From a virus (taxonomy: Duplodnaviria > Caudoviricetes), in IMG/VR virus record IMGVR_UViG_3300028886_000003, positions 81,331 to 145,330 of that record: a DNA stretch of 64,000 nt; one strand, written 5' to 3'. Under the pieces are notes generated by a model. That model worked only from the letters and a program-made list of their open reading frames with translations. It searched no databases and was not told the DNA's origin. This document shows positions 2-39,906 of the stretch, one piece after another. Position 1 is the stretch's first letter, and each line of letters opens with the position of its first letter. Position numbers and translations under genes: made by a program.

Positions 2-772
2 TGTTGCAACTTTCATATTTATTTTAGCATTACCTTGCTGAACAGCATCTAAATACCTACCTCTTCTTAAAGGATCATGTGCCATAAAAGCATTCCTATA
101 CCTTAAATTAGCTAAAGATGGCACTTTATTATAATCAATACTTTCCCACTCGTTATTACACATTTTTACTTCAACTACATTTAAATATGCACGAAGTTCT
201 GATAATAATAAACGATATTGGCGCGGAGACATGCCTAATGACTTAATAATATATTTAGCCATCATTTTAGTTTTTTTGCTACTTGCATTCTCACTTGGTA
301 ACCATTTCGCAAGTAATGAAATAGGTTTGTTATTCTTCATTAATTCTTTATCCATTTTTAATCTTCTATCGATCATATGGATAATTAAATTATCATGTTC
401 CAAATCATAGCCTAAAAGTGATATTAAATCATCCCATCGACCATATTCAGGAATAAGATGTAAGAATTTAACGAAATAGTTTGGATCAATTTGAGCAAGC
501 CTTCTGTAGCATACTCTAAATAATCTTCTTTCACCAAGTCCCCCACGAACATCTCTAGCAAAAAATAACCATTTTAATGCATATTCCTTATTTTCTAAAA
601 AGGCTTCGTCAAATAAAGTTCTAATTAATTCATCATCTGCTTGACGTAAACTACTAACTTGATAATTTAAATCAAGTAATGCTGAGCCTGTGCTTTTATA
701 TCCAATAGCACCATTTTCTGTTATTGAATGATTTTTAATTTCTCTTAACTCATTTCTAATTAAATTAAACAT
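2..772 (-). CDS. DUF2828-family protein (TROVE/Ro60-like N-terminal region; vWA domain expected beyond window), 3'-truncated
   Basis: Manual translation from ATG at 772 (RBS AGGTGGT): MFNLIRNELREIKNHSITENGAIGYKSTGSALLDL...WLFFARDVRGGLGERRLFR...IPEYGRWDDL...SLLAKWLPSENASS...IDYNKVPSLA, hallmark DUF2828 motifs. Not in ORF track because it runs off the window edge. Confidence 0.85.
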   Translation of the reverse strand, partial: MFNLIRNELREIKNHSITENGAIGYKSTGSALLDLNYQVSSLRQADDELIRTLFDEAFLENKEYALKWLFFARDVRGGLGERRLFRVCYRRLAQIDPNYFVKFLHLIPEYGRWDDLISLLGYDLEHDNLIIHMIDRRLKMDKELMKNNKPISLLAKWLPSENASSKKTKMMAKYIIKSLGMSPRQYRLLLSELRAYLNVVEVKMCNNEWESIDYNKVPSLANLRYRNAFMAHDPLRRGRYLDAVQQGNAKINMKVAT

Positions 773-1139: not shown

Positions 1140-1296
1140 AATATATATAGAATAAGAGTGCAAAAGTGAGATTATATGTACTTATTTGTCATTTCGAATT
1201 TTATTTAATTTAATTTATAATAGTCTTTTGATATGCAAACTTATTCTAAATATTTTTTTAGTCAATCCTAAACCATAATTATGGAAGAGGATTAAT

Positions 1297-1367
1297 TGGA
1301 CTCAAAGGGAATCGAACCCCTATATCAAGCTCCGAAGACTTGTATGCTTCCATTACATCATAAGTCC
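1297..1367 (-). tRNA. tRNA-Arg(TCG)
   Basis: GGACTTA/TGAGTCC acceptor, CAAGT-CTTCGGA-GCTTG, TTCGATT T-loop. Confidence 0.9.
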
Positions 1368-1372
1368 ATAAG

Positions 1373-8462: not shown

Positions 8463-9386
8463 TTATTTGGGTAACCATTTAAAATCTCCTGCTCTTTCTT
8501 TTACTTGATCTAGTGTTGGCATATTTGTTTGACAACCTTCTTTTTGTACAATAAAAGAGGCAACCGCTGATCCAAATATTGCACATTCTTCTATTGGCGC
8601 TCCATTAATAAGAGCATATAAAAATCCTGCTTGGTAAGAATCTCCAGCACCTGTTGGATCAACAGCATCAACTTCAAAAGGTCTAGTATTCCAATGACTT
8701 TCTTCATCTTTGGAAAATATAGTTGAACCTTTTTTTCCTAATGTTTTTACTACGTATTCTACACCAAGCTCAAATGGGTGTTGTTTTAATTTTTCATTCA
8801 TAGTGTAAAATTCATTTTCATTACAAAATAATATATCTACACCTTGTAAAACATCTGATAATTGTTCAGAACTATATGAATGTAATGCTTGCCCAGGATT
8901 AAAAGATACTATAATGTTATCATCCATACCTGTGTATTCTGTGCATTTTTTAGCATATGTTGGAGGTACTGTTGTAATATGTACCACTTCTGATTTATCA
9001 ATGCATTCTTTTGGAACAGGTGCTTTATTAAAATATTCAGATGCTCCTTCTGATATGTAACTTTTTTGAACTCCTTCTGAATCTGTAAATACAAAACATT
9101 CACTTGTTAAATCGGAAACAATTTTTAAATTTGCTAGACAATTATCATCATATTTCATATAATTGAAATAAACTGTATCTACAAAATCATAGCCAACAGG
9201 ACTATATAATCCTGTTTCTGCTCCTAACCTTGATGCAACAAGAGCTACATTTGCCCCTGTTCCACCATGATATCTATTATATTTTTGTATTTTTTGCGGA
9301 GAACCTTCATCTGCAAATTTTTCAACATTAATAATGTGATCAAAGTTTGTATGCCCAATTGAAAATATTTCATACATTATTATCAC
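8463..9386 (-). CDS. PfkB/ribokinase-family kinase (archaeal nucleoside kinase-like)
   Basis: GGTGANVA..ASRLG, FNPGQ, FCNENE, VKTLGKKGS, DPTGAGDSY signatures. Confidence 0.9.
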   Translation of the reverse strand: MIIMYEIFSIGHTNFDHIINVEKFADEGSPQKIQKYNRYHGGTGANVALVASRLGAETGLYSPVGYDFVDTVYFNYMKYDDNCLANLKIVSDLTSECFVFTDSEGVQKSYISEGASEYFNKAPVPKECIDKSEVVHITTVPPTYAKKCTEYTGMDDNIIVSFNPGQALHSYSSEQLSDVLQGVDILFCNENEFYTMNEKLKQHPFELGVEYVVKTLGKKGSTIFSKDEESHWNTRPFEVDAVDPTGAGDSYQAGFLYALINGAPIEECAIFGSAVASFIVQKEGCQTNMPTLDQVKERAGDFKWLPK

Positions 9387-9600
9387 TTCGTTTAATTAAT
9401 TTTTTTAATTGATGAACTAAATTATTGTATTTTCTATTTGCTTCCGCGGTAAGATAAATTTGATGATTTAGAAAATTAAGCCATTCTGTTGCTTTCTCTG
9501 GTTCATCTAATTTAAACATTATTGGATCTAATTCTTTATGTAAATCATGTATGTATATAGCATAATCTGTAGCTTCAAGATAGAAACGTTTTGATTTCAT
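9370..9600 (-). CDS. MTENKRF-like family protein
   Basis: MKSKRF start, ..LNFLN.. coiled coil. Confidence 0.55.
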   Translation of the reverse strand: MKSKRFYLEATDYAIYIHDLHKELDPIMFKLDEPEKATEWLNFLNHQIYLTAEANRKYNNLVHQLKKLIKRSDNNV

Positions 9601-9602
9601 TT

Positions 9603-10073
9603 TTAACCTCCTTCTTCGTTATTTTCTTCTTCATCATTAAGATTTATTTTAAAGTCTTGGACTGGAATTTCATGTCTATTACCATCATCATCGGTAACTG
9701 ATAGTGATGCATCATAATGTCCAAATAAAACACTTGGTTCATCATCTTCTTCGTTATTAAATAAATCTTCGAATCCATTAGGGACAACAGTATCGGATGG
9801 TACAATGTCTTTTGATGAAGGTGTTCCTGCAGAAAGTATTTTTTTTAATAACTGAAGAAAAGTGTGATCATGTTTTAGTTTAATTGCTAATACATCTTGT
9901 CCTCCTATTTCACCATATCCACACTCAATGTCATCAATAGGAATTTTATGTTCTCCGTCATCATAAAATAATACTAAATTATCAACATTGTATTCTTCTG
10001 ATGCTTCTGCTAGTCCTTCTTTTATTGTATCTAATACTTCAAAAAAATCTTTTAGTTTCATCATATATATCAC
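9603..10073 (-). CDS. acidic hypothetical protein
   Basis: ORF with internal repeat DDG..H.IP. Confidence 0.55.
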   Translation of the reverse strand: MIYMMKLKDFFEVLDTIKEGLAEASEEYNVDNLVLFYDDGEHKIPIDDIECGYGEIGGQDVLAIKLKHDHTFLQLLKKILSAGTPSSKDIVPSDTVVPNGFEDLFNNEEDDEPSVLFGHYDASLSVTDDDGNRHEIPVQDFKINLNDEEENNEEGG

Positions 10074-10379
10074 CTATATGTAATGTGGACAAATTGAGTC
10101 TAAAACAGGGGTTTTATGGTTAAAATTACATATTAATTTACCATCTCTGGTCCATGTGGTACGTCCACAGTTACCACAGCAACGAGCATTGCAATTCATT
10201 TGTTCAACTTCATCTATAAATTCTGATAAATTAGAGAGTTGAGTTTCTCGTTCATCTATTCTTTTTATATCTAAATATTCTCTTTCTACTTTGTCGAAAA
10301 AGTTTACATGTTGTTGAGCGTCCCATATGTGGAAAAATACTGCTTCAACATTATTCTTGTACAAAACTACATAAATCAT
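10074..10379 (-). CDS. hypothetical protein with C-terminal Cys cluster
   Basis: CCGNC...C...C; follows the promoter at 10415-10439. Confidence 0.55.
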   Translation of the reverse strand: MIYVVLYKNNVEAVFFHIWDAQQHVNFFDKVEREYLDIKRIDERETQLSNLSEFIDEVEQMNCNARCCGNCGRTTWTRDGKLICNFNHKTPVLDSICPHYI

Positions 10380-10414
10380 TTTATCACCTCATTGTTTTGT
10401 AATTATAATTTTAA

Positions 10415-10439
10415 TTAAACTCATATATAAATGTTTCTA
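10415..10439 (-). promoter_or_regulatory. viral promoter (25-bp exact repeat with 21388-21412)
   Basis: TAGAAACATTTATATATGAGTTTAA: BRE + TATA upstream of an RBS. Confidence 0.65.
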
Positions 10440-10742
10440 TTATATTTCTTTTTTAGGTATAGCTACAATAGATAGAAATGGATCATCGTGTAAATATGGT
10501 GATTCATCTATTTCAAAATGAATCTCGTAATAGTAAGAAAGTATGAATATTGCTTCATCTTCTGATATTTGATCTCGATCCATTATTTTATTAATAAGTT
10601 GCCTGTAACATTCTTTATATGCATCGTAAACTATTTTATTATACCTATCTTGAAAATGTGAAAGGTATCTTGGATGTATTTCTGATTCAATACGTTCTGC
10701 TTGAAGTTTCATTTTTATCACACCCTTTGTGATTGTACACAC
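10440..10742 (-). CDS. hypothetical protein
   Basis: ORF track; likely start MKLQAE. Confidence 0.5.
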   Translation of the reverse strand: MCTITKGVIKMKLQAERIESEIHPRYLSHFQDRYNKIVYDAYKECYRQLINKIMDRDQISEDEAIFILSYYYEIHFEIDESPYLHDDPFLSIVAIPKKEI

Positions 10743-10923
10743 TTAATTAACTGATGCTCTAATTCCTTATTATTGTCATAAAGTTTATTAAGTTCATAAG
10801 TGATTATTTGAGCATCTGTTTTATATTTAAGCCCACCAATAATAAGTAAACCATTAGGATCACGTATTGAATATTCACCAATAACATTAGTTACAACTTT
10901 ATATTCTTTTATATCCATATTTT

Positions 10924-11268
10924 TTACTCCTTATATTCTTTTAAATAATCAACATATTGGAATATGCTATCTTTATGGTAAACTTCTTCTCTTAATTTCT
11001 TTAAGCATTCTTCTTCAAGCAAATATTTGTCATCTTTTGTTTTTCTATATTTTGCTTGACAGTACCATATTTTAAATTGTAATAATTCGGTTAAGTAATC
11101 AGAATCATATCCATTATTATTTAAAACTTCAACAATTTCTTCTGCATTATATGCCATGTCTAAATTCTGATTATATACTGATGTATTGTCTTTAAATGCT
11201 CTATCGTCGCTACATCTTTCGCACTCTACTACTACAAAACGATCTCTTCTTGGCTTCCAATATTTCAT
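10924..11268 (-). CDS. MTENKRF-family protein (ECxxCSDD type)
   Basis: N-terminal module near-identical to that of 11825-12205. Confidence 0.6.
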   Translation of the reverse strand: MKYWKPRRDRFVVVECERCSDDRAFKDNTSVYNQNLDMAYNAEEIVEVLNNNGYDSDYLTELLQFKIWYCQAKYRKTKDDKYLLEEECLKKLREEVYHKDSIFQYVDYLKEYKE

Positions 11269-11453
11269 TTTTTATACACCACCTTTTCTTATATAATCCA
11301 TTTTCTCTTTAAACATTTTATCTTTAATTTCCAAATATGCAGTATTACCATATTTTAATCGTAATTCTGCTTCTTTTAGTGTATTTGCTTCTTTAAGTTC
11401 ACTTGTTATTTCTCTTATAACATCAGCAGTATCTCTTGAAATCTCTATGCGCA

Positions 11454-11822
11454 TCATTCTAAATCCTCCTCATCTAAAATTTTAAAAAAATCCATAGTAT
11501 CATCTAAATCACTAATCAATTGATCAAGTGTGGCTACTCCACTAAAATCATTATTTACAAAACAATCCTCTCTAAATGAACCAATTATTTTAAACAAAAG
11601 CTGTATATTTTTTTGATTATCTTTTTTTAATCGCTCATTCTCTTCCATCAAATACTTGTTATGTTCTTCAAATCTTTTAGTTTGATTCCACAAGCTATTA
11701 CATAACTCAATAACCTCATCAAAATAATCAACATAATAGGTTTTTTTTGTAAGATTATCAGTAAAACTTTGATCTTCAATCGCTTCAAAACCATCATCAA
11801 CAAATCGTTCATTTTCACTCAT
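11454..11822 (-). CDS. MTENKRF-family protein
   Basis: MSENERF...EENERLKKDN. Confidence 0.6.
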   Translation of the reverse strand: MSENERFVDDGFEAIEDQSFTDNLTKKTYYVDYFDEVIELCNSLWNQTKRFEEHNKYLMEENERLKKDNQKNIQLLFKIIGSFREDCFVNNDFSGVATLDQLISDLDDTMDFFKILDEEDLE

Positions 11823-11824
11823 TA

Positions 11825-12205
11825 TTACAACTCCTTTTTTAAATTTTTTAATGTATTAATACTGTGAATTATATTGTGCATAGGACACATTCCATTTTTT
11901 TGACCGAAATCATACTTTCTTTGAAGTTTATCAATATTTTTATCAATAATGTTAAATACTCTATCTTTGAATTCTTTGTTTTCTTTTTCAAGATTGAAAT
12001 TCTCGATAACTATTTCATCAGTATTGTTTAAAATTTCAACAATATCATCAATACTATATGCAAAACCTAATCTTTGGTTATACACACATTTATTGTTCTG
12101 AAAAGCCTTATCATCAGAACATTCTTTACATTCCATTACTATGAATCGTGGTTCACTAGAATTCCATCTAATATTATACAATTCATTTATATTTTTTTCA
12201 GTCAT
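11825..12205 (-). CDS. MTENKRF-family protein (ECxxCSDD type)
   Basis: MTEKN...RFIVMECKECSDD...LKKEL. Confidence 0.6.
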   Translation of the reverse strand: MTEKNINELYNIRWNSSEPRFIVMECKECSDDKAFQNNKCVYNQRLGFAYSIDDIVEILNNTDEIVIENFNLEKENKEFKDRVFNIIDKNIDKLQRKYDFGQKNGMCPMHNIIHSINTLKNLKKEL

Positions 12206-12401
12206 TCTTTTATCTCCTTTATTTCTAATGTCACTTGAAATGTTTTTCCAGTTTTTTCGCCAGTAAATTCAAATGTTCTCTTACAAATCCTTAATCTGCT
12301 TTCTTTATCTAAATCCCTAATTGCTCCTCTGTGTATTTGATGAATTGCAGATTTTAAACATTGCAAGTCATAATAATTTAAATCTATCAAATTTTTATCA
12401 G

Positions 12402-12647
12402 TCATTCATATCCCTCAAAACTTTTAGTTTTATCACCCAAGACTTCAATATGTCTTAATCTTTTATTAGGTTTAGGAATTTCGTTTTTAGTTTTCTTTTT
12501 TAACTGTTCACTTTCTTCATGTAATTTATTCATTTCATCACAATATTTCTGTTGCTGTTCTTTACTCGGCCATACTGTTACTGGTATGATACCAAGAGTA
12601 TCTTCAACCATATCTCCATATATTTGAAATCGTTTATTTTTAGTCAT
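12402..12647 (-). CDS. MTENKRF-family protein
   Basis: True start MTKNKRF after GAGGAG RBS. Confidence 0.6.
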   Translation of the reverse strand: MTKNKRFQIYGDMVEDTLGIIPVTVWPSKEQQQKYCDEMNKLHEESEQLKKKTKNEIPKPNKRLRHIEVLGDKTKSFEGYE

Positions 12648-12648
12648 T

Positions 12649-12801
12649 CTAAATCTCCTCAAACATATCACATTCAAATACTTCGTCACAATCAATTCCC
12701 TTTTTTATAGAACACCAAGTATCCACTTCTCTATCAGATACCCAAGTACCTTTTTGATGTTTACAATCAATACATAAACTATATTCTCGTTTTTTAGTCA
12801 T
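12649..12801 (-). CDS. 50-aa Cys4 zinc-finger-like cassette protein
   Basis: Manual: MTKKREYSLCIDCKHQKG...WCSIKKGIDCDEVFECDMFEEI. Confidence 0.55.
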   Translation of the reverse strand: MTKKREYSLCIDCKHQKGTWVSDREVDTWCSIKKGIDCDEVFECDMFEEI

Positions 12802-13022
12802 TCTAATTCCTCAATATTTTCTTTTAATTCATCATAATTATAAATAAATATACTACCAAATTGACAATAATACTCCATATCATCTCCAAACTCATCTTGG
12901 AGCTTTTCCCAGTCTTCTAAAGGTGTTGCATGAATACATGATTCTAATTTATATTCATCTTCAAAAAACCATAATACATATTTTTCATTATTTATTTCAA
13001 CAATTGAATCTATTAATTTCAT
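12798..13022 (-). CDS. hypothetical protein
   Basis: ORF with AGGTG RBS, ATGA overlap. Confidence 0.55.
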   Translation of the reverse strand: MKLIDSIVEINNEKYVLWFFEDEYKLESCIHATPLEDWEKLQDEFGDDMEYYCQFGSIFIYNYDELKENIEELE

Positions 13023-13026
13023 TTTT

Positions 13027-13335
13027 CTAACACCTGCCTATACTTATACCTAAAGCAATACCCACACACATCATTCCTAATATTTGCTGAATAACATATT
13101 CTTTAGTTAAAGGGAAGAATATCCCCCATAATATTAATCCTAAAGCTATTAAAACTATAATCAAACGAATTGTAAGCTTCATTCTTTCAGCTTTTTTATT
13201 TCTTTTATTCTCGTCATTTAATTCATTTATAACATCTACCAATTCATCTTCACCTATAGGACTAAACTCATATTCTCTATCGTTAATTCCAGTTTCATCA
13301 AGATAAAATCGTTTATTTTTACTCATTTTTATCAC
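13027..13335 (-). CDS. MTENKRF-family protein fused to two TM helices
   Basis: MSKNKRF...VDVINELNDEN followed by a hydrophobic hairpin. Confidence 0.6.
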   Translation of the reverse strand: MIKMSKNKRFYLDETGINDREYEFSPIGEDELVDVINELNDENKRNKKAERMKLTIRLIIVLIALGLILWGIFFPLTKEYVIQQILGMMCVGIALGISIGRC

Positions 13336-13511
13336 TCCATTTTCTTATCAAATGTCTTAAAAATGCTTCTTCATCACTAATCATTGGTTCTTGATTCATC
13401 ATTTGTTCAAGTATTTCTTCTCTTGTAGGTTTTTCTCCATTATCTATATATAGTATACTCATATGTTTTGCCCAAGTAGGAAATTGTCTTTCATTCATTC
13501 TTTTAACTCCT

Positions 13512-13763
13512 TCATATTTCATTTATACTTATACCTAAATCTTTAAGAACATCAACATAAATACTAATCAATTCATTAGCATCTACTAATTGCTCTTTTA
13601 ATTGTTCATTCTCATTAACAATTTTATTAATCTCGTTACACAATTGCTGTGAATCATATTTTCTTTTACCATATTTTTTGCCAGTAGCATTATCTACAAT
13701 CCCATAATGATTACTTCCAATTGGTATATCATGTTTTACTTCAAATCGTTTATCTTCGGCCAT
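13512..13763 (-). CDS. MTENKRF-family protein
   Basis: MAEDKRF...NENEQLKEQL. Confidence 0.6.
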   Translation of the reverse strand: MAEDKRFEVKHDIPIGSNHYGIVDNATGKKYGKRKYDSQQLCNEINKIVNENEQLKEQLVDANELISIYVDVLKDLGISINEI

Positions 13764-13895
13764 TTATAACCACTTCTTTCTGAATTTGTTACAAGTTTTA
13801 CCACTGTAGGACACCTGAATATTCCGTAGAGGACAATAAAAATTATAATAATATATACATTGACCACAAGTACGAGTTTGTTTATTTTCAGTCAT
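13764..13895 (-). CDS. 43-aa Cys4 zinc-finger-like cassette protein
   Basis: Manual: MTENKQTRTCGQCIYYYNFYCPLRNIQVSYSGKTCNKFRKKWL. Confidence 0.55.
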   Translation of the reverse strand: MTENKQTRTCGQCIYYYNFYCPLRNIQVSYSGKTCNKFRKKWL

Positions 13896-14292
13896 TCTTT
13901 TCCCTCATTAACTTTTTAAATGGATCTGAAAGTTTATACCCTTGTTCTTGTGCAATATCTAACTCATGTAACAATATACTATTAAAAGATGAATTATTAC
14001 AAGCAATTGACTTCCAACGTTCTTTTTCTTTTTTTAATTCTATTAATGCTTGATTTTGTCTATCGAGTTGCTCATCTTTCTCATTATCAAGTGCTTCCCA
14101 GTTTTGTACTAATAATTTTAATGAATTATTTGTCATTTTTAACTCATCATTCTTATTCAACAAATCTGTCACTTCTCTATAGGTCATACGCTCTCCATCG
14201 CAAAAAATCTCACACTCATTATCTTCTAAATCCTTAAAACCACAAGGATAATCTGCAATAAATGTATGAACAGTAAATCGTTTTTTAATCAT
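13888..14292 (-). CDS. MTENKRF-family coiled-coil protein
   Basis: MIKKRF...EVTDLLNKNDELK. Confidence 0.6.
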   Translation of the reverse strand: MIKKRFTVHTFIADYPCGFKDLEDNECEIFCDGERMTYREVTDLLNKNDELKMTNNSLKLLVQNWEALDNEKDEQLDRQNQALIELKKEKERWKSIACNNSSFNSILLHELDIAQEQGYKLSDPFKKLMREKND

Positions 14293-14298
14293 CCTAAA

Positions 14299-14616
14299 TC
14301 ACCATGCTTTACAAAGTTTTTCAATAGTTTGTTTTAAATTCTCATTCTCTTTTTCCAATCTGTCCACCTTACAACCATACTTGATACATAATTTATTTAA
14401 TTTTTTATTTGCTCTTTTTAATTTATCGATTTCATTATTTTCTAACTCTTTAATTTCTTTTTTTAATTTTAATCCTTTTTCAAATTCGGCATCAAGTAAT
14501 GAATGAATATAATCCCTATCATTTTCTAGTTCGGCATAAGATAATCTTAACTTAGATAATTCAATACTTAATCGATTATATTCTGTTTTATAATCTATTG
14601 CTTTATCATTATTCAT
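14299..14616 (-). CDS. coiled-coil protein
   Basis: Heptad pattern, ENENLKQ. Confidence 0.55.
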   Translation of the reverse strand: MNNDKAIDYKTEYNRLSIELSKLRLSYAELENDRDYIHSLLDAEFEKGLKLKKEIKELENNEIDKLKRANKKLNKLCIKYGCKVDRLEKENENLKQTIEKLCKAW

Positions 14617-14954
14617 TCTTCCAACTCCTTTTTCAATTCTTCTAATAATTCAATTTCGTCATATATGATACTGGATGGCATTCCAGCCCTTACAGCACTA
14701 CTATAAGCTTCTTCATGTTTCTTTATTTTTCTATTTATTAAATTAAATACTTTATCTAACTCTTCTTGTAAATATTTATTAGATTGTTTTAATTCTTCAA
14801 TCTCTTCATTACATGCATCAATTACCCAATCTTTGTCATTTAGCATATTAACTACTTGTTCAACACTGCAAGATTGTTCGAACTCTGTATCCCAAACCAC
14901 TTGATCGTATTCATCGAATCCTTTAACCTTAAATCGTTCGTTTTCAATCATCAT
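14613..14954 (-). CDS. MTENKRF-family protein
   Basis: True start MMIENERF after GGAGGT RBS; C-module shared with 11825-12205. Confidence 0.6.
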   Translation of the reverse strand: MMIENERFKVKGFDEYDQVVWDTEFEQSCSVEQVVNMLNDKDWVIDACNEEIEELKQSNKYLQEELDKVFNLINRKIKKHEEAYSSAVRAGMPSSIIYDEIELLEELKKELEE

Positions 14955-15198
14955 AGATACCTCCTGAAGTATAATCTCTTTTTGCTTTATAAAATTGATT
15001 ATACATCTTATTCCATCTTCCTTTATCTTCATAGTACCATATTAACTCAATTACCATTTTTCTCCAATATTCTGCTTCATTTAATAAATTAACAATTTCG
15101 CCATAAGTTATCCATTGTCCATTGTCCGCAATTTCTTCACACCCAATACCATCATCAATATCAGGTTCTCTTAATGTAAATCGTTTATTTTCAGTCAT
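14944..15198 (-). CDS. MTENKRF-family protein
   Basis: MTENKRF...EIVNLLNE. Confidence 0.62.
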   Translation of the reverse strand: MTENKRFTLREPDIDDGIGCEEIADNGQWITYGEIVNLLNEAEYWRKMVIELIWYYEDKGRWNKMYNQFYKAKRDYTSGGIYDD

Positions 15199-15476
15199 TC
15201 TAAATCAACTCCTAATTCATCTGCAATATTGTGTATTGCTTCTGTTACATCACCATATGGTTGGTTTAATAGCAATACTCTTTCTATATAATAATCCAAT
15301 TGTTTTTTTAAGACTTTTTTTACTTGTGTCTGTTGTTTTATGTCTTCTTCATTTAACTCATTCAAGAGTTTTATTAGCAAATCAACATCACCATTGCTAA
15401 TTATCCAACTCCTTACTAATTTTAAATCAACAATAGTATTCCCATCATATTTAACAAATCTTTTATTTTCAGTCAT
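15195..15476 (-). CDS. MTENKRF-family protein
   Basis: True start MTENKRF; LLNELNEE. Confidence 0.62.
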   Translation of the reverse strand: MTENKRFVKYDGNTIVDLKLVRSWIISNGDVDLLIKLLNELNEEDIKQQTQVKKVLKKQLDYYIERVLLLNQPYGDVTEAIHNIADELGVDLE

Positions 15477-15746
15477 TATAATCAACTCCAAAATTTACCC
15501 CATGTTCTTTCAAAAGTTTTATTGTCTTGAACTGAACTAACTGGATTTCGTTTATTCCTACCTGAACGAATATTATGCAGCTTCATTCTAACAGGACAAT
15601 ACATACTTCTTGTACTCACTCTTTTTAAATCTTTAAAAGAATAATGAAACAATTGTGATTTCCAAATGCTTTTTATCGGATTTAAGGGATTACTATAATA
15701 TCTTTGATGTTTTGAAAATTTTGGCATCCATGTATAAGTCATTCTT

Positions 15747-16139
15747 TCACCACGCAGTAAACCATTCTGCATTTCGTATATCCATTCCATGAGATTCTTT
15801 ATAATCTTTGCAAATACTTCCAATAATTTGTTTTAATTGTTCATTTTCTTCTTTTAGCTCTTCATTCTCATTATATAAGTCATAAACTAAATCAGATATT
15901 CTTTCTAAATCTATTCCTTTACCTCTTTTCATACCTCTGTCAAATTCTTTGAATGTTAATTTTTCAGTATCTAATGTATCTTTCATGTATCTATCTGTTT
16001 GACAAACGGCACAGTAACATTGATAAACATTATGTTCATGTTTTGCTAATACCCTCATAGGATATTTACATACTGGACATGTCATTCTTATTAATTCGTT
16101 ATTTTCATCCATATTGACCTCAACATATCTACCAGTCAT
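15747..16139 (-). CDS. zinc-ribbon plus coiled-coil protein (MTENKRF array)
   Basis: CPVC...CAVC; ENEELKEENEQLKQ. Confidence 0.6.
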   Translation of the reverse strand: MTGRYVEVNMDENNELIRMTCPVCKYPMRVLAKHEHNVYQCYCAVCQTDRYMKDTLDTEKLTFKEFDRGMKRGKGIDLERISDLVYDLYNENEELKEENEQLKQIIGSICKDYKESHGMDIRNAEWFTAW

Positions 16140-16450
16140 TCTTTACACTCCTTAACTTCAAAATCTCCACAAAATGCCAAATCTATCTTCGAACATTCCT
16201 CATGTCCTTTTTTACACTCTGAAACATAATACTTACCATTTTTAACAAGGTATTCATGTTTACATATATCACAAACACCATCACCATGCAACAATTGTGT
16301 TTTTAACTTCTGATTTTCTTTTTTTAACTGCTCATTCTCATTCAACAAATCAACAACTTCTTTATTTGTTAAAGGAACACCATTACAGAAAAAACTACCT
16401 ATATAATGATTCTTTGAAGCAACAAGATATGTAAATCTTTTTTCAGTCAT
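16136..16450 (-). CDS. MTENKRF-family protein with Cys-rich C-module
   Basis: MTEKRF...VVDLLNENEQLK...CDICKH...CKKGH. Confidence 0.62.
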   Translation of the reverse strand: MTEKRFTYLVASKNHYIGSFFCNGVPLTNKEVVDLLNENEQLKKENQKLKTQLLHGDGVCDICKHEYLVKNGKYYVSECKKGHEECSKIDLAFCGDFEVKECKE

Positions 16451-16785
16451 TCTTTCACCCTTTCCAACATTTCGTTTAAATCTTCTATTTCATAATCCTT
16501 ACACTCTTTAATCTCACAACATTCATCAGCAGGGTGTCCTTTTAAACATTCAAAATTCCCCTCATGTCCGAAAAAATCGTTAGTTATCCAATATTTTCCA
16601 TGTTTACAGTTTTCACAGATTTCATTAAAACACTTGAATTTTATTATTTCTTTTAACACTTCATTCTCTTTTTTTAACTGCTCATATTCATCAATTAATT
16701 CTTTAAATTCATTTTCATAAACATAGATTAAATCATCTTCATTTACTTTACTAACTGTACCATCATCATCAAATTGCAACATCAT
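16447..16785 (-). CDS. coiled-coil plus Cys-rich module protein
   Basis: EQLKKEN...CENCKH...CLKGH, paralogous to 16136-16450. Confidence 0.6.
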   Translation of the reverse strand: MMLQFDDDGTVSKVNEDDLIYVYENEFKELIDEYEQLKKENEVLKEIIKFKCFNEICENCKHGKYWITNDFFGHEGNFECLKGHPADECCEIKECKDYEIEDLNEMLERVKE

Positions 16786-17081
16786 TAAATAAGCCCCCTA
16801 ATGATTTTCATATATTCAGACATAATTTCATTGTCTATTGGTTCTTCTACTTCATTAAACAATTTATTCAATCGGTTAAAATTCTCATTTAATGATTCGA
16901 TTTTCATTCTTAATCTTTGATTATCTTTTCGTAATTGTTCATTTTCATCTACAAGTTTTTCTAATGTAATTACATAATAATTTAAAAGATTAACCACTTC
17001 TTCAACTGTATCAAAATTATCAAGTGTAACTTTGTCAATTAAAGTACCTGCATCATCAACCATATACCTTTCAGCACTCAT
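16785..17081 (-). CDS. MTENKRF-family protein
   Basis: MSAERY...EEVVNLLN...ENEQLRKDN. Confidence 0.6.
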   Translation of the reverse strand: MSAERYMVDDAGTLIDKVTLDNFDTVEEVVNLLNYYVITLEKLVDENEQLRKDNQRLRMKIESLNENFNRLNKLFNEVEEPIDNEIMSEYMKIIRGLI

Positions 17082-17780
17082 TCTTCTAACTCCTTGACAT
17101 CTAAAAATTCAAATTCAACAGATTTAAACCAATCATCACAATCATCTTTTACTGCTCCAAGATAGTTGTCCATTGTTTGCATAACTGCATTTTCCTCATC
17201 AGTATCTTCAAATACTACTTTGAAACTACCAGTAATCATATATTCAGTCATTCTTCCACATCCAAGTCCATTTCATTAACCATCATCATACCTACACTAC
17301 AGTTCTCTCTCTGATCTGCATAATACTCCATTGCTTCTAATGAAAACCCTTGCTCATATATTTCTTCTGTTTCATTATCATACACTACAAACACAGGAAC
17401 TAAACCATCTTCACACATTTTAAAATTCCTCCCTTTCATAATATTCAAAATCGCACATAGATTCTCCAGTACAGTCTGTAAAAAACATATCTATATGCTC
17501 TAATGTTTTTTCACAAAAATCAAACATCTGATATTTACAATTATGACAACCATCATACGATTTATTTATTTCACTCATTATTTCACCCTAAACTCATCTA
17601 TAGCATCACATAAATTATGATATTCATCTCTTAACCATTTTCTATCATATTCGACTTGTGCTTGTAAATGTTCTATTTCATCAAAAAATAATTTTGCATT
17701 TCTTAATTGACTTTCATGTGCAACTACATTTGTAAATGCTCGACAATATTTGATACAAGCATTATATAAATCTAAATCAT

Positions 17781-18008
17781 TCATTTTATTACCTCCTTTT
17801 GCCCCATTGATTCTAATTCATTAAGGCGATCTTTAATTTGTTTTACAATTTTATGCATATCATAATCTTCTTGAGAAGCTTCATTTAGCAAATTAATAAT
17901 CTCATACAAGTTTAATTTTAATTCTTTTCCTTCAAGATTATCATAAATAACTGCTTTTAGCTCATGAAAATGATATTCCCTTAGATCATATCGTTTCTTT
18001 TTATCCAT
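17781..18008 (-). CDS. MTENKRF-family protein
   Basis: True start MDKKKRY after AGGTG RBS; EIINLLNE. Confidence 0.55.
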   Translation of the reverse strand: MDKKKRYDLREYHFHELKAVIYDNLEGKELKLNLYEIINLLNEASQEDYDMHKIVKQIKDRLNELESMGQKEVIK

Positions 18009-18018
18009 TTTAAAACAC

Positions 18019-18456
18019 CTATTTTGGCAATCTTGTTTCAAATCCTTCTTCTGAAACTGTTGTGGATTCATAACCTTTTTCAAAATGATCAATAAGATCT
18101 TCATCATCTATTCCATCAAACCATTTTTCAATTTTTTTGAACATTTTTTCAAAAAAGTTAATTAAATGTTCATCAGTATTTATATCTTTAAATGAAGACT
18201 TGTTAATTGCAGACATAAGTGTTTTTGATGTAGCATAAGGACATTCTAAGTTTAAACAGGAACTTCCATCAAAACATTCATTGTTTGAAATATGAGTACT
18301 TGTAATAACCATTGGATCAAGATTAGTCATACCTACTAAAGCTACTTTTCTTGTTTTTTTACAAACACCCCACCATATTTTTGCTTTTACTCTTCTGCCT
18401 CCAGGGGTCCTAATTTCATGACCTATCCACCAATATCCAATATTTTCTTTTTGCAT
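18019..18456 (-). CDS. hypothetical protein
   Basis: 145-aa ORF with GAGGTGG RBS. Confidence 0.55.
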   Translation of the reverse strand: MQKENIGYWWIGHEIRTPGGRRVKAKIWWGVCKKTRKVALVGMTNLDPMVITSTHISNNECFDGSSCLNLECPYATSKTLMSAINKSSFKDINTDEHLINFFEKMFKKIEKWFDGIDDEDLIDHFEKGYESTTVSEEGFETRLPK

Positions 18457-18705
18457 TTATTCCACCTCTTGGTATTTTTTACAATATTTTTCACCATAAT
18501 ATTCATTTGATTTTAAACTTAACACATAATCAATATCATCATCATTTAATCCACGATATTTTAGTAAATGCCCTACAAGTCTTTTTTTATCAGAATATAG
18601 TTCATTTAACTTTTTTGCAATTGTATCACCATCATTGATAGCTCCTACAAATTCTCCATCAAATTCAATGCAATTCTTGTCTACATTATACTTAAATCTA
18701 CTCAT
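18457..18705 (-). CDS. MTENKRF-like protein
   Basis: MSRFKY...IAKKLNELY. Confidence 0.55.
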   Translation of the reverse strand: MSRFKYNVDKNCIEFDGEFVGAINDGDTIAKKLNELYSDKKRLVGHLLKYRGLNDDDIDYVLSLKSNEYYGEKYCKKYQEVE

Positions 18706-18719
18706 TTTATTACCTCCTT

Positions 18720-19085
18720 TTATTTAAAAAAACTTTTGATCATTTCCCATGTATCATGAAAAAGTCCTTGTTTGTTTATTGCTGCATCAACTGGTAAGTA
18801 ATATTTTTTATAATCACTATTTTTTAAACAATATTTGCAGCTTTGCATCATACTTCCTGATATTCCTCTAACTTTATATCCTGCTAAAGTCCCTCTTATA
18901 TGAGTTCTTTTATGTCTTTCTCCATTATAAACGCATTCTACATTATAATCGTAATAATCACATTCTTCTTCTTCAATAATGGATTCTCGTTTGAAACAAT
19001 AAACATAGTCTTTGTTTTTATCAAGATATACGTATGCATATGTCATTTTTAGAACCTCTTTATTTCCATTGCTCCAGTTGGGCAA
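18720..19085 (-). CDS. hypothetical protein
   Basis: ORF track; likely start MTYAYV. Confidence 0.5.
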   Translation of the reverse strand: MPNWSNGNKEVLKMTYAYVYLDKNKDYVYCFKRESIIEEEECDYYDYNVECVYNGERHKRTHIRGTLAGYKVRGISGSMMQSCKYCLKNSDYKKYYLPVDAAINKQGLFHDTWEMIKSFFK

Positions 19086-19303
19086 AGATGGTTACAAGGA
19101 AATGATACTTTTTTTCCATTAATTTCTGCCTCACAATTGCGGCATATTGGATAATCATTTTCATACTCTGGGCATCCATCATATTCGTCCAATATCATAA
19201 AACCTAATGTTCTATATATTTCTTGGTTCATTTCTGTGCATAACTCAATGCATTTATAGCATTTTGTACATTTAGATGGGTTTACATAATGATATGTGTC
19301 CAT
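19049..19303 (-). CDS. 4Fe-4S ferredoxin-like protein
   Basis: CxxCxxCxxxC (CTKCYKCIELC) and CRNC...CNHLCPTGAM second cluster motif. Confidence 0.75.
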   Translation of the reverse strand: MDTYHYVNPSKCTKCYKCIELCTEMNQEIYRTLGFMILDEYDGCPEYENDYPICRNCEAEINGKKVSFPCNHLCPTGAMEIKRF

Positions 19304-19790
19304 TTAAATCACCTTTATCACTAAAATCCCCATAATTAACATAATACATAATACAAGTATTCCTATGCTAATTAAAGGAATTAAATTAAATATTTCTTTA
19401 TCAATTTGTTTCTTATATCCATCATATTCTACATACTCTTCGTAACTAACATGATGTGGTATGTAACCATATTTTTCATTAAAATATAATTGTGCATCCA
19501 TATCACCATCTAGACGAACACTCATATTTAATCACCTTTTTCATTTAATTCGTTTAATAAAGCAGTTAAAGGTTCTAATTCATAAATACCATATGATATT
19601 CCCTCTAAATCCTCAATTCTTGCTTCTTCTAAGCAATCTCCCATATGAAAAACAAATCTTTTTGTCATTTTATCACCTCTAAATCATTCCTATGAGTTTT
19701 AAAATAATAATAACTATTCCTACATTTATCATTATAACAAGTTCAACCATAACAATATCAATTATCCAATTAAATACTTTATCGCTCATT

Positions 19791-20150
19791 TTATCTCCAT
19801 CTATTTCTTCTACTGAAATTACTTACTATTTCAGAGAATATACCTTCTTCTAAGTCTTCATCTACTTCTTTCATTAATTGAGGACTTAATTGACCAAATG
19901 CTTCTGCCAAGAAGTTATATTGAGCATCTACCATTGAATATTCATCATGTAATTTTTCATATTCATGCCACCATTTATTCGCTAATGCCCTAGTTCGCTC
20001 TAATTCTTTTTTTAATTCTACATTTTTTACTTCAAGATCTTTATTGACTTTTTCAAGTGCAATATTAGTATCTTTTTGTTGTTTTATTTCTCTATTTAAT
20101 TCATTATTTTCAGTTACTATCTCTTTTACATATTCCAAACATTCTTTCAT
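19791..20150 (-). CDS. coiled-coil protein
   Basis: Heptad repeats, GGAGGT RBS. Confidence 0.55.
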   Translation of the reverse strand: MKECLEYVKEIVTENNELNREIKQQKDTNIALEKVNKDLEVKNVELKKELERTRALANKWWHEYEKLHDEYSMVDAQYNFLAEAFGQLSPQLMKEVDEDLEEGIFSEIVSNFSRRNRWR

Positions 20151-20162
20151 TTTTTATACCTC

Positions 20163-20426
20163 CTACCATAATGGACTAAGTAAAATATTTAAATCATCAC
20201 CATCAAGACTGTTCAATGGCTCTAAGTAAATACCTTTGTCAGCTAATATTGATTCGAAGTTATCAGATGCTTCGGCTAATAAATCAATTATACGTATTTC
20301 GCCCCAAAATGCAGCTTCTTGTCCAAGAGCATGGGTCCAACATGCATGATGTTTTTCCGCTAATTCTGATAATGTACAATATTCATCATCTTCTCCTTCT
20401 TTTGTTACTTTGTATATTAATGGCAT
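20163..20426 (-). CDS. hypothetical protein
   Basis: GGAGGT RBS. Confidence 0.55.
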   Translation of the reverse strand: MPLIYKVTKEGEDDEYCTLSELAEKHHACWTHALGQEAAFWGEIRIIDLLAEASDNFESILADKGIYLEPLNSLDGDDLNILLSPLW

Positions 20427-20431
20427 ATTTT

Positions 20432-20902
20432 TTACCTCCAGTGATATTTCATGTCGTCAAGTATTTCTTTTATAAAGTCGAAACTTAATTGTGCTTCTTC
20501 CGGCCACCAAGGATCTACATCTCTTTGTGATTCATAATTATTAGCAACTCTGTAGCATTCGTAACATTGATTTTGGTCAATATCGTATAATACTGGGGTT
20601 GCCCAGTTACTTGTTATTGCGTAACCGAATTTGGATTCTTCTAATGGTTCTGTTGGTTGTCCATCTTTTAATCCTATTGCACTGGTTTCACTCCAGTCGC
20701 CTTTGAGGCCGAAAGCTGCATTTTGAATGTCATGTGCGTGTATTAGCATTATTGCTCTTGCCCAATCAAATGTTAAAAAGGGTTTATTTTTTTTATATGC
20801 TCTTTTTGCTTTGTCTATTTTTTTTAATAAATCCTTTGCTTCTTCATCTGTTAAATCTTCAACAGTTATCTTTTTTATTGTATCTATATCCACGTATATC
20901 AC
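20432..20902 (-). CDS. hypothetical phage protein
   Basis: FDW.RA...AFGL.GDW..T...SNWATP motifs. Confidence 0.6.
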   Translation of the reverse strand: MIYVDIDTIKKITVEDLTDEEAKDLLKKIDKAKRAYKKNKPFLTFDWARAIMLIHAHDIQNAAFGLKGDWSETSAIGLKDGQPTEPLEESKFGYAITSNWATPVLYDIDQNQCYECYRVANNYESQRDVDPWWPEEAQLSFDFIKEILDDMKYHWR

Positions 20903-21195
20903 CTTATTTGATTTTTTAAGTATTCTACAAATTCTCTTAATAGTAATCTTTCGCCATATGAATGATCTTTTTTGGCGGCGTAATTATAGAATTGTAATTC
21001 GATTATTTCTAACATTTTGTCTTTGTCTGTTAGTGTTTCTTTTACATATTTGTTTTCTTTAGTTAGCATTTTTACCTCTTTGTCTAAGGTATTTGCGATG
21101 TCTATGAATTGATCTAAAGAAAGTTCGTATCTCATTTTTGAGTCATATATTTTGTCTTTTTTGAACATTTTTGGCCTACAAGTAAATCTTTTCAT
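20899..21195 (-). CDS. MTENKRF-like protein
   Basis: MKRF...IYD...IANTL...KENK. Confidence 0.55.
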   Translation of the reverse strand: MKRFTCRPKMFKKDKIYDSKMRYELSLDQFIDIANTLDKEVKMLTKENKYVKETLTDKDKMLEIIELQFYNYAAKKDHSYGERLLLREFVEYLKNQIR

Positions 21196-29592: not shown

Positions 29593-30939
29593 TTAATGAT
29601 AATGTTGTTTAATCACTTTCTCCAAACCTTTTTTGCCTGCCCAGTTTAATAACCAAGCTTTTTCTTCAGGTGTTGGATCTCTATTGTCATAACCTTTTGC
29701 TTGTTGAATACCATCATATTTTATTTCAACAGTTAATACGCTGTCATCAGGATGATCAACCTGTCTCATAAAGAGAATAATAGTTTCACCATCAAGAATT
29801 TTATCGGTATATCTTTCATACAAACAATGACTTAATTGAGTAGCCTCATTAGCAATGTCTTCAATATTTTCGGGCAATCTAATGAAGTAAGCATCTTTCT
29901 TGTATTCTAAATACTTTTTACTTTCTTTAAATTTGTTATATTCATCCATTTTTTCCTCACGATACATTAAACGTTTTAAATCCTCCATTTGGTTGTAATT
30001 GAAATGATGTTTATGATAGTATGACATCCAATTACTTGGATATTTATTCATTTTACTTCTTTTCATATTTTTCATTTCATATTCTCTCTTGAGATAATCA
30101 TCATAATTTCTCATTAGATCTTCAACAGTTACAGCTTCAAATTGAAGTTTTAAAAGATAGTTGCAGAATGCTTTTAAATCTAAGTGCCATTCACTTGCTA
30201 CTTCTAAAACACTTGTACGACCATCTCTGCCATACTCTGAATGTTTAAGATAGTTATAAGTTTGTTTATTTCCTCTATAATCAAATTTAGTAATTGAGAA
30301 CGCATCATTGTATCTTTGATCTTTAACTAATTCATCTAATTTTTTGCCCAATTGATATTGTTGTGGATTCCAATAATTTTGGGTTCGAAACAATGTATCA
30401 CTAGTTATACCATTATTTTTCTTAGAAACATTTCTTAGATATTTTATTTGTTCTTTGTCAAAATCCTTAGGATCATACCCAATATAGGACATTCCCCATC
30501 TTCTTACTTTATCAATATCACTACCATTTTGTATTCTTTCAAGACATTCATTCACCCTTTTGAAATCAATATCATGTGATAACCATTTTTCTAACGTGTC
30601 AACTTGATAAGTTGCAAAATTAGCAATATATCGAACTGGAGATTTGTATTTTAGTTTAAGACCAGCTGCATAAACAAACATCTTTGCAAATTTGTCATTA
30701 TCAGTAACTAAGCTACAACGAGTGAACCAGCTTGTAATTTTTGCAGGATCAACAATTTCAATTTTGTCTTCTCTTGTTTTGTAATGGGTTATCCTCTCAA
30801 ATTCATAACTTGATAAATCATATCTGAACTCTTTACGAGGATCTTCAGGTTTTTTAAGGGTAATATATTTACCTTCTTTGTTCATATAAATTTTATCTGC
30901 GAAAATTCCATTGTCTACTAATATTTTCATGTTAATCAT
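29593..30939 (-). CDS. PcfJ-domain protein
   Basis: C-terminal LP....DI..EA.QLSHCL...Y...I..G...ILFMR....D.S.LTVEI....IQQAKG.DNR. Confidence 0.75.
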   Translation of the reverse strand: MINMKILVDNGIFADKIYMNKEGKYITLKKPEDPRKEFRYDLSSYEFERITHYKTREDKIEIVDPAKITSWFTRCSLVTDNDKFAKMFVYAAGLKLKYKSPVRYIANFATYQVDTLEKWLSHDIDFKRVNECLERIQNGSDIDKVRRWGMSYIGYDPKDFDKEQIKYLRNVSKKNNGITSDTLFRTQNYWNPQQYQLGKKLDELVKDQRYNDAFSITKFDYRGNKQTYNYLKHSEYGRDGRTSVLEVASEWHLDLKAFCNYLLKLQFEAVTVEDLMRNYDDYLKREYEMKNMKRSKMNKYPSNWMSYYHKHHFNYNQMEDLKRLMYREEKMDEYNKFKESKKYLEYKKDAYFIRLPENIEDIANEATQLSHCLYERYTDKILDGETIILFMRQVDHPDDSVLTVEIKYDGIQQAKGYDNRDPTPEEKAWLLNWAGKKGLEKVIKQHYH

Positions 30940-39403: not shown

Positions 39404-39657
39404 TATTTTTTTTCATATAATAGCGTCTCACATATTTATATACCAGAACAAACAAAAATAAACACACAAAAATAAGGAGCATAAAAAATGGATGATAAAA
39501 GATATATGCAATTATTTTACATTATATTTACATTATTCACAATAGGCATTTGCCTACTTATCTTAAACAACGAAATTGGCGGATACCTATCAATAACAAT
39601 GTTTTTTGCTTTTATACTAGTTGCAACTCATAAAGCTATGTTCGGAGAGTTTTAAAA

Positions 39658-39906
39658 ATGAAAAGATACACAACAATACCAAATACAAACATCATACTTG
39701 ACAATTTAACAGGCGAAAAAATATCATTCAAAAAAAACACAATAATCAAAATACTCAATCAACTAAACGATAAAAATGATGAATTAGCCACAGAACTGTA
39801 TGATAACAAAATGGAAGAAACAGAAATACGCAGAATATTAAAAAAATACAATATCCATAATAGCAAAAAACTAGATCAATGCTTATTGAATCAAAGAACA
39901 TGGTAA
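39658..39906 (+). CDS. MTENKRF-like protein
   Basis: MKRY...ILDNLTG...ILNQLNDKNDEL. Confidence 0.55.
   Translation: MKRYTTIPNTNIILDNLTGEKISFKKNTIIKILNQLNDKNDELATELYDNKMEETEIRRILKKYNIHNSKKLDQCLLNQRTW

Follow-up and report, generated by a model that had tools for sequence, protein, structure and literature searches.

Candidate coding anchors for cassette shuffling in a small-gene array of a probable methanogen virus

Introduction

Among the described systems, the shuffling of promoter-early stem-loop (PeSL) cassettes in T4-type phages (Arbiol et al., 2010, PMC2839356; Comeau et al., 2014, PMC4122927) appears to be the closest to the locus analyzed here. PeSLs are intergenic promoter and terminator units with a stem-loop found in bacterial viruses, and mini-circles have been shown for them (PMC2839356, PMC4122927). 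Our locus is an array of small genes dominated by one protein family, called KRF here after its N-terminal motif. It lies in a stretch of 64,000 nucleotides (the window), i.e., bases 81331-145330 of the IMG/VR record IMGVR_UViG_3300028886_000003, which we call G000, and all coordinates are those of the window unless stated otherwise.

The logic of the two systems seems to be shared, while the nature of the repeat is not. As with the PeSLs, short conserved repeats lie between small genes, mostly of unknown function, in a hyperplastic region, the end points of insertions, deletions and replacements between related viruses fall in the repeats, homologous recombination would act without an integrase, and the repeat also has a role in expression. 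However, whereas a PeSL is an intergenic promoter with a stem-loop terminator, the repeat described here consists of a Shine-Dalgarno sequence, a stop/start and the first 6-7 codons, and the array has neither hairpins nor intergenic space. It also has a second anchor inside the genes at which half-genes appear to be swapped, and the hosts are probably archaea.

Further comparisons are offered by the module theory of Susskind and Botstein and by the short conserved gene-boundary sequences that were reportedly noted between HK97, HK022 and HK620. Such lambdoid boundary or linker sequences are crossover points at which modules are reassorted between phages, but they are sparse, separate large functional modules and have no tie to a particular multigene family. 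In our case there are tens of copies per genome, the units are 150-400 bp and the synonymous sites are fixed. Integron arrays likewise hold small promoterless cassettes of the same orientation with a recurring boundary element; in contrast to them, our array has no IntI and no attC hairpin, each cassette has its own Shine-Dalgarno sequence and start, and crossovers also occur within genes. The vls genes of Borrelia and the pilS genes of Neisseria are families with segmental gene conversion, in which one expression site and silent cassettes serve the immune evasion of a cell. They resemble the array in having variable segments between short, nucleotide-constant direct repeats, head-to-tail arrays and mosaic products. 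The difference is that every cassette here is by its sequence an expressible gene, and that the exchange appears to run between virus genomes.

Experimental knowledge of the viruses that infect gut and rumen methanogens is scant, and nearly all of their small genes lack annotation.

Results and discussion

An array dominated by one protein family

The array occupies 9370-21195 on the minus strand (~12 kb) and contains about 50 small head-to-tail genes with 0-17 nt between them (Table 1). An earlier reading of the window from its letters alone (the sequence-only reading) had described about 30 short genes in one orientation at 10924-19668, most of them coupled by ATGA overlaps, and had suggested that a recurring junction serves both as ribosome-binding site and start and as micro-homology for the gain, loss and reordering of cassettes. 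There are 33 genes within those limits, all on the minus strand, but the family and the array extend beyond them on both sides. The ATGA overlaps are present, but "most" was too strong, as about 11 of the 33 junctions have this 4-nt overlap, three have an 8-nt overlap, two a 1-nt overlap, and the rest are gaps of 1-17 nt.

A hidden Markov model (HMM) of the family, as the sequence-only reading had advised, was built from 15 N-termini of array genes. It recovers exactly these 15 genes, which are all the clear KRF paralogs of the 145-kb genome and all lie within the array. Two further array genes are divergent members. The only HMM match elsewhere is a weak one (E 1e-3) at 39634-39906, on the plus strand and far from the array, which may be a stray or degenerate family member.

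The family consensus opens with M-x(0-3)-[KE]-R-[FY], which leads into a variable stretch bearing an I.D signature and on to ..LLNEL..ENEQLK. Members begin with M-T-E-(N)-K-R-F and continue with a hypervariable beta-hairpin module of 25-35 residues, the LLNEL..ENEQLK helix and an exchangeable C-terminal module. The latter may extend the coiled coil, or it may be a Cys4 ribbon or a transmembrane helix. When every protein in a library of 1.84 billion clusters was searched, at least 1,220 clusters (50% identity) matched at E<=1e-3, nearly always from residue 1. For comparison between genomes we used, among others, five viral records (G001-G005) found via an exact DNA 21-mer of the junction. The 196-kb virus G001 has 41-48 family copies and another record has 10. 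The copies of G001 lie on one strand at G001:C1:105000-157000 (L027-L029), together with 61 ATGACTGAA starts in about 50 kb, which makes this the largest array in the comparison and a more suitable object than the window for statistics on breakpoints.

One subfamily has 42 conserved residues at its N-terminus followed by C-terminal halves that are mutually unrelated, and one and the same tail can follow different N-terminal modules. The view of the sequence-only reading that a common N-terminus is carried by otherwise unrelated proteins is correct in part. Some unrelated genes do begin with ATGACTGA(AAA), but most of the proteins belong to one family with swapped C-terminal modules. Neither this common membership nor a second anchor at ENEQLK, inside the genes and suited to half-gene exchange, had been described in that reading. 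It had also offered the alternative that the shared N-terminal peptide is a functional tag, and the retention of N-terminal R[FYW] or K-R-F in 234 of 260 homologs would agree with this.

A variable segment between two nucleotide-constant stretches is also what template-driven hypervariation by a diversity-generating retroelement (DGR) might leave behind. However, the variable modules are unalignable and differ in length, unlike the adenine-specific substitutions of DGRs, and a search for reverse transcriptase (PF00078) gave no match in G000, G001, G002, G003 and G005. With neither a reverse transcriptase nor a template repeat, membership of this class was rejected, and we find a DGR-type origin of the variation barely credible.

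The family has no significant match in curated collections. Pfam gave only sub-threshold coiled-coil noise, PHROGs gave families of unknown function at E>=1e-4, and PADLOC, PDB sequence profiles and Foldseek against the PDB gave no match. The AlphaFold monomer of the 11454-11822 product (mean predicted local distance difference test score, pLDDT, 73) begins with a disordered stretch, forms a beta-hairpin at residues 18-31 and continues as a long helix (34-90). A two-copy prediction scored 0.55, compared to 0.00 for the best of three controls. The mark of 0.55 was reached by 20/30 proteins whose solved structure is a pair of one chain and by 1/23 whose solved structure is a single chain, counts that hold only roughly here as a custom alignment was supplied. 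Three runs agreed in at least 56% of contacts, and the partner pLDDT was at least 66. From these models, the family helix is probably the start of a parallel, in-register dimeric coiled coil. As coiled coils are common among solved structures, the two-copy result may reflect mere likeness. Our guess is that the proteins present variable binding heads in pairs on a shared stalk, with targets in the host or in rivals.

Conservation at the nucleotide level

The recurring junction described by the sequence-only reading was recovered at the positions given there. The reverse complement of ATGACTGAAAATAAACGATTT has eight matches at <=3 mismatches compared to 0.02 expected, at 11802, 12627, 13306, 13743, 13875, 14931, 15178 and 15456. 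That reading had included an upstream GGAG in the junction. A Shine-Dalgarno sequence and a preference for GA are indeed found 5' of the ATG, but strong conservation is limited to ATGACTGAAAA(TAAA)CGATTT. Identical nucleotides 5' of the ATG occur in different frames of the upstream gene (15198 and 15476; 16450 and 15742; 12647 and 11457).

The junction motif is confined to the array. GAATGACT has 11 copies in the 145,330-bp genome, and ten of these are gene starts on the minus strand, with their first base at 12207, 12407, 12649, 12803, 13897, 15200, 15744, 16141, 16452 and 17253. ATGACTGAA is found six times in G000 and 61 times in G001, with every copy (6/6 and 61/61) inside an array and on the coding strand, a concentration that resembles that of the PeSLs, while the synonymous ATGACAGAA has 0-4 copies per genome. 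In five Methanobrevibacter metagenome-assembled genomes (MAGs) of 1.5-3.2 Mb, ATGACTGAAAA has merely 5-12 copies each, partly in small local clusters. Since the motif is restricted to the array and rare in host MAGs, a general translation-start optimum of the host or the virus was dropped as an explanation.

Clearly unrelated array genes have only ATGACTGA(AAA) in common. Starts with ATGACTGAA are also seen in unrelated genes of the array. In the array regions compared, ATGACTGA opens 59 of 371 gene starts that were not flagged by the family HMM. A minority of the 59 read MTE(N)KRF and probably belong to the family although the HMM missed them; many of the rest code for proteins of a clearly different kind. 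Among the 371 starts, Thr at position 2 is coded by ACT in 92 cases and by ACA in 12.

Codon choice was tested at 98 family starts from eight sources, 92 of which have R[FYW] within the first ten codons, with the rest of the same genes as background. Thr2 was ACT in 56/59 (background 0.44), and the Arg of the motif was CGA in 60/92 (background 0.16), a codon that makes up 6.5% of the Arg codons in long genes of G000. The Glu, Lys and Phe of the motif were GAA in 58/60 (background 0.75), AAA in 74/76 (0.82) and TTT in 82/87 (0.79). The test was repeated on the window and three contigs found by protein search, a subset obtained without any DNA pattern. CGA was again preferred (17/28, p = 3e-7), and Thr2 was ACT in 11/14 family starts and in 32/39 of all called genes with Thr at this position. 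Beyond the conserved motifs the family proteins are only about 20% identical, and synonymous sites should therefore have been randomised long ago. The synonymous-site test proposed by the sequence-only reading accordingly gives a conservation that is not purely at protein level.

The second anchor follows the same pattern. In 47 exact occurrences of ENEQLK, GAG is used for the two Glu in 36/47 and 34/47 (background 0.19) and CAG for Gln in 40/47 (background 0.15). The peptide is thus written in minor codons, most often as GAGAATGAGCAGTTAAAA, and this exact 18-mer was seen 21 times. Judged from the sequences compared, both the junction and the ENEQLK stretch appear to be conserved in nucleotides beyond what the protein requires. 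Two possible causes were discarded. G000 has a tRNA-Arg(UCG) that reads CGA, but G001-G005 have many CGA copies of the motif without such a tRNA, so this link is not general. RNA pairing between the two anchors was dropped as only about 5 base pairs are possible by eye.

The main rival explanation is an ordinary expanded family in a translationally coupled operon. The start nucleotides would be fixed by initiation or by a shared translational operator or RNA-processing site, and the mosaicism would come from illegitimate recombination filtered at gene boundaries. The targets of RegA or RegB in T4 are a model for such a co-regulating site. The retention of K-R-F as protein in the homologs is in agreement with this, and so are the E, K and F codons at the start, which are AT-rich major codons as expected of an unstructured initiation region, and the lack of structure in the junction windows. 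The genes also abut, with the Shine-Dalgarno sequence inside the upstream gene, and viable breakpoints would therefore lie only at boundaries. However, ACT over ACA and CGA over AGA neither lower structure nor raise AT content, and the motif is missing from the rest of each viral genome, including the structural genes, and is rare in host genomes. A start-site operator also leaves the second, intragenic anchor in minor codons unexplained, as well as the crossovers inside it described below. We consider this explanation rather unlikely.

Stop codons at the junction

ATGACTGA carries one TGA in each of the two other frames. Among 105 ATGACTGA starts, the upstream gene stops at the first TGA (ATGA) in 46 and at the second (ATGAC-TGA) in 20, i.e., in 66/105 the start and the upstream stop share 4 or 8 nt, as expected of translational coupling. 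The Shine-Dalgarno sequence lies inside the upstream gene, where C-termini such as G-D-V-E are written as GGTGATGTGGAATGA. Because upstream genes end at either TGA overlap, a C-terminal E or D is the expected footprint in the proteins, and among the 260 family homologs 95 end in E and 40 in D. At L005:10001-10450 (P0003), two family genes are joined in frame across the junction (..KERGGERMTEKKRF..) because the upstream gene is in the third frame, which ATGACTGA does not terminate. Several database homologs also have two family domains.

No hairpin or inverted repeat was found at the junctions in 105 windows of 70 nt (mean z +0.3 compared to shuffles, 2% below -2), and these windows are no more stable than gene interiors. 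This bears on the comparison with integrons made by the sequence-only reading, and on any other site-specific cassette system with a recombinase acting at the junction. Small, mostly promoterless genes of one orientation with a recurring boundary sequence, here on a single strand with 0-17 nt spacing, are what such a system would give. However, the complete 145-kb genome had no match to the tyrosine recombinase family PF00589, which was matched in 14/14 control genomes, nor to the serine recombinase family PF00239, so the lack of a visible integrase in the window extends to the whole genome. The junctions have nothing like an attC hairpin, and crossovers also lie within genes, at ENEQLK. Membership of the integrons was rejected, and site-specific recombination at the junction seems highly improbable.

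Exchange of cassettes between viruses

The terminase, portal, capsid-region and primase proteins of G000 had no tblastn match in G001-G005, and the cassettes are therefore common to viruses that are otherwise unrelated at that sensitivity. All-against-all blastn of the eight sources gave only patches of about 100-250 nt with 70-98% identity, in scrambled order. The locus L005 has backbone genes that are 65-74% identical to the window (the end of the primase, the 20453-20902 gene, the 10151-10436 region and PfkB). The 10-kb array is missing from L005 at the corresponding site, and its family cassettes lie several kb beyond, arranged as 15199, 12407, 13781, 11822, 16679, 14952, 12207 in window coordinates. 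Two cassettes that are 91.7% identical between the window and L005 lie side by side in the window, and in L005 they are separated by 2.5 kb. For both, homology starts at GAATGA and ends, where traceable, at the next GAATGAC, and the flanks are unrelated.

The ends of high-scoring segment pairs (HSPs) fall within 15 nt of a called gene start in 76/204 cases (null mean 17, maximum 31), and within 15 nt of either a gene start or an ENEQLK-like motif in 111/204 (null mean 22, maximum 36); the anchors thus take the place that the repeats have in the PeSL system. The sequence-only reading had named a fixed gene order with breakpoints unrelated to the junction as evidence against itself; we find that the order is not fixed and that homology breaks in the junction. 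Its proposal of a junction that is both ribosome-binding site and start and a micro-homology for cassette gain, loss and reordering fits these comparisons.

What appears to be the clearest single case of exchange is a mosaic gene in G002. Its first part, from the ATG to GAGAATGAGCAGTTAAAAAA (ENEQLK), is 93% identical to G001 near 143.1 kb, and its second part is 98% identical to G001 near 150.7 kb as far as GGTGATGTGGAATGAC, the next junction. The upstream flank has a 95% match to a third site in G001.

Such mosaics could be artefacts of metagenome assembly, i.e., chimeric contigs joined at repeated 20-nt motifs. Every sequence in the comparison comes from a short-read metagenome assembly, and each genome has many copies of the anchors. 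Misjoins should not arise from repeats that are shorter than the assembly k-mer, however, and the exact repeats, at about 11-26 nt, fall below the k-mer lengths of 115 and 141 bases given in two ENA contig names (k115, k141). The same cassettes were also found in independent samples and collections (ENA, IMG/VR, NCBI MAGs) with 70-98%, not 100%, identity, and the C-terminal E/D and the swapped C-terminal modules recur across hundreds of independent clusters. We regard an assembly artefact as very unlikely.

A model of recombination at two coding anchors

We estimate with a probability of roughly 60% that homologous recombination shuffles cassettes at two coding anchors, in a hyperplastic small-gene region dominated by a large undescribed family. 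This would account for what the compared sequences display, namely the family itself, conservation at nucleotide level, restriction of the motif to the array, shuffled order and breakpoints at the anchors. We infer that recombination at the anchors is the cause, and that the anchors are kept for or by recombination.

The genes are packed for translational coupling, with each Shine-Dalgarno sequence written in the C-terminal codons of the preceding gene, and ATGACTGA provides the start codon plus a TGA in each of the two other frames. The junction ATGACTGAAAA(TAAA)CGATTT and the ENEQLK-coding GAGAATGAGCAGTTAAAA, both constant at DNA level, would in this model act as homology anchors, at which general homologous or short-homology recombination could cross over without a dedicated integrase. 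As a result, whole genes as well as half-genes would be duplicated, deleted, reordered and exchanged, both within a genome and between otherwise unrelated co-infecting viruses. Because one anchor is inside the genes, protein domains and not only genes would be recombined.

Several points weigh against this model. It is based on a comparison of metagenome assemblies, in which no recombination event, circle or population variant was seen. With zero intergenic space, selection for intact genes alone would put the surviving breakpoints at gene boundaries, and BLAST HSPs end where conservation ends, which inflates their coincidence with conserved motifs. The paralogs are non-independent and the binomial p-values overstate significance. 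G001-G005 were picked by an exact 21-mer, although the signal persists in the sources found without a DNA pattern, and translation-initiation constraints can also fix synonymous sites at the start.

More tentatively, the anchors may be a shared exchange code. Second-order selection or constant conversion would keep it identical among methanogen viruses that are otherwise unrelated. Co-infecting genomes would then trade heads, stalks and effector tails of one dimeric family, and ATGACTGA would be a docking site for upstream genes in either frame, since both are terminated there. We see this as a possibility worth stating rather than as our expectation. If true, these archaeal viruses would have a communal combinatorial library of host-takeover or anti-defence proteins without a dedicated recombinase, and the library would probably be variable within single viral populations.

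The family itself is very large (up to about 48 copies per genome) and was undescribed in the libraries searched. While the known shuffling sequences of T4-type and lambdoid phages are intergenic regulatory elements, those described here are coding and translation-start sequences with frozen synonymous sites, partly frozen to minor codons. They offer a concrete test case for the question of whether short sequences are maintained because they promote exchange. Additionally, motifs of 9-21 nt that mark the arrays and are rare elsewhere in the examined viral and host genomes give a handle for finding and classifying methanogen viruses.

The virus and its probable host

G000 is a complete record of 145,330 bp with direct terminal repeats and 28% G+C, and encodes a terminase, a portal protein and a D5-type primase. 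The best host clue in it is a pseudomurein-binding repeat (PMBR) in a 322-aa protein outside the window (G000:C1:35075-36043, the same as L034:1279-2247; 36.7 bits compared to a cut-off of 24.9), which is probably part of the lysis or adsorption apparatus. PMBR proteins were also found in the motif-bearing records G002 and G005, and at the locus L008 PMBR occurs together with Peptidase_C71, a pseudomurein endoisopeptidase domain. The junction 21-mer is clustered on contigs of several Methanobrevibacter MAGs, and the NCBI source annotation of one family homolog is uncultured Methanobrevibacter. Based on these sequence matches, G000 is most likely a 145-kb head-tail virus of a pseudomurein-walled rumen or gut methanogen, probably of Methanobrevibacter type. 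The GenBank phage collection gave no match by megablast of the region or by tblastn of a 620-aa neighbour protein, and a related-locus search with the G000 primase as query returned no relative.

Array inventory and neighbouring features

The individual array genes are listed in Table 1. In the 16136-16450 gene, 22-23 nt of the anchor region are 100% identical to L005 and L008. The genes at 15747-16139 and 16447-16785 have only the coiled-coil part in common with the family. Cys4 or Cys-rich mini-proteins of 43-84 aa are scattered in the array on the minus strand (13764-13895, 12649-12801, 17420-17578 and 19049-19303), and two of them start with an ATGACT junction.

Table 1. Genes and junction-rich stretch of the array, in window coordinates; KRF paralogs are given with their N-terminal residues.
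Position	Strand	Feature	Basis
20899..21195	-	KRF paralog (MKRF...)	family HMM, E 3e-17
19528..19668	-	KRF paralog (MTKRF...), 46 aa, stop just past LLNELNE	family HMM, E 5e-13
18457..18705	-	KRF paralog (MSRF...)	family HMM, E 1e-8
17781..18008	-	KRF paralog (MDKKKRY...)	family HMM, E 3e-18
16785..17081	-	KRF paralog (MSAERY...); ENEQL-coding stretch at 16932-16946	family HMM
16136..16450	-	KRF paralog (MTEKRF...), Cys-rich C-terminal module; minor-codon anchor GAGAATGAGCAGTTAAAA at 16322-16339	family HMM
15195..15476	-	KRF paralog (MTENKRFVKYDG...)	junction scan and family HMM
14944..15198	-	KRF paralog (MTENKRFTLREP...), exact 21-mer junction; metagenome orthologs 57-90% identical	junction scan and HMM
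14613..14951	-	KRF paralog (MIENERF...); 8 nt overlapped by end of upstream gene	family HMM
13888..14292	-	KRF paralog (MIKKRF...)	family HMM
13512..13763	-	KRF paralog (MAEDKRF...); ENEQLK anchor at 13596-13613; L005 ortholog fused in frame to another family gene	
13027..13326	-	KRF paralog (MSKNKRF...), C-terminal transmembrane module	family HMM
12402..12647	-	KRF paralog (MTKNKRF...)	junction scan and family HMM
11454..11822	-	KRF paralog (MSENERFVDDGFEAIEDQSFTD...); modelled beta-hairpin and long helix; homodimer model supported	
9370..9600	-	KRF paralog (MKSKRF...), last array gene, immediately upstream of the PfkB kinase gene	family HMM
11825..12205	-	Divergent member (MTEKNIN...EPRF..ECKECSDD..IVEILNN); 91.7% identical to L005, homology from exactly GAATGA	
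10924..11268	-	Divergent member (..RDRF..ECERCSDD..IVEVLNN), paralog of 11825-12205	
12202..12405	-	Non-family cassette (MTDKNLIDL...) between two GAATGACTGA junctions; 91.7% identical to L005, 92% to G001; flanks unrelated	
13764..13895	-	Non-family Cys4 mini-gene starting with ATGACTGAAAATAAAC; upstream gene ends at second TGA (8-nt overlap)	
15747..16139	-	Zinc-ribbon N-terminus plus only the coiled-coil anchor (ENEQLK stretch at 15831-15848); starts with GAATGACT	
12200..17253	-	Stretch with ten GAATGACT stop/start junctions	10/11 copies in whole genome

Directly after the array, at 8463-9377 on the minus strand, lies a gene for a PfkB-family sugar kinase (E 3e-53). Neighbouring genes at 2-772 (-), 29593-30939 (-), 32663-33472 and 37474-38793 (-) code for a DUF2828 protein, a PcfJ-like protein and two HIRAN-domain proteins. 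A tRNA cluster at 1053-1649 consists of Ser(GCT), Arg(TCG), Trp(CCA) and Leu(TAG), with one tRNA at 1296-1368 (-). The GC skew of the plus strand is -0.36 to -0.49 at 12000-20000, compared to about -0.1 to -0.27 in most flanking regions of minus-strand genes, and cytosine is strongly avoided in the coding strand of the E/K/N/D-rich array genes.

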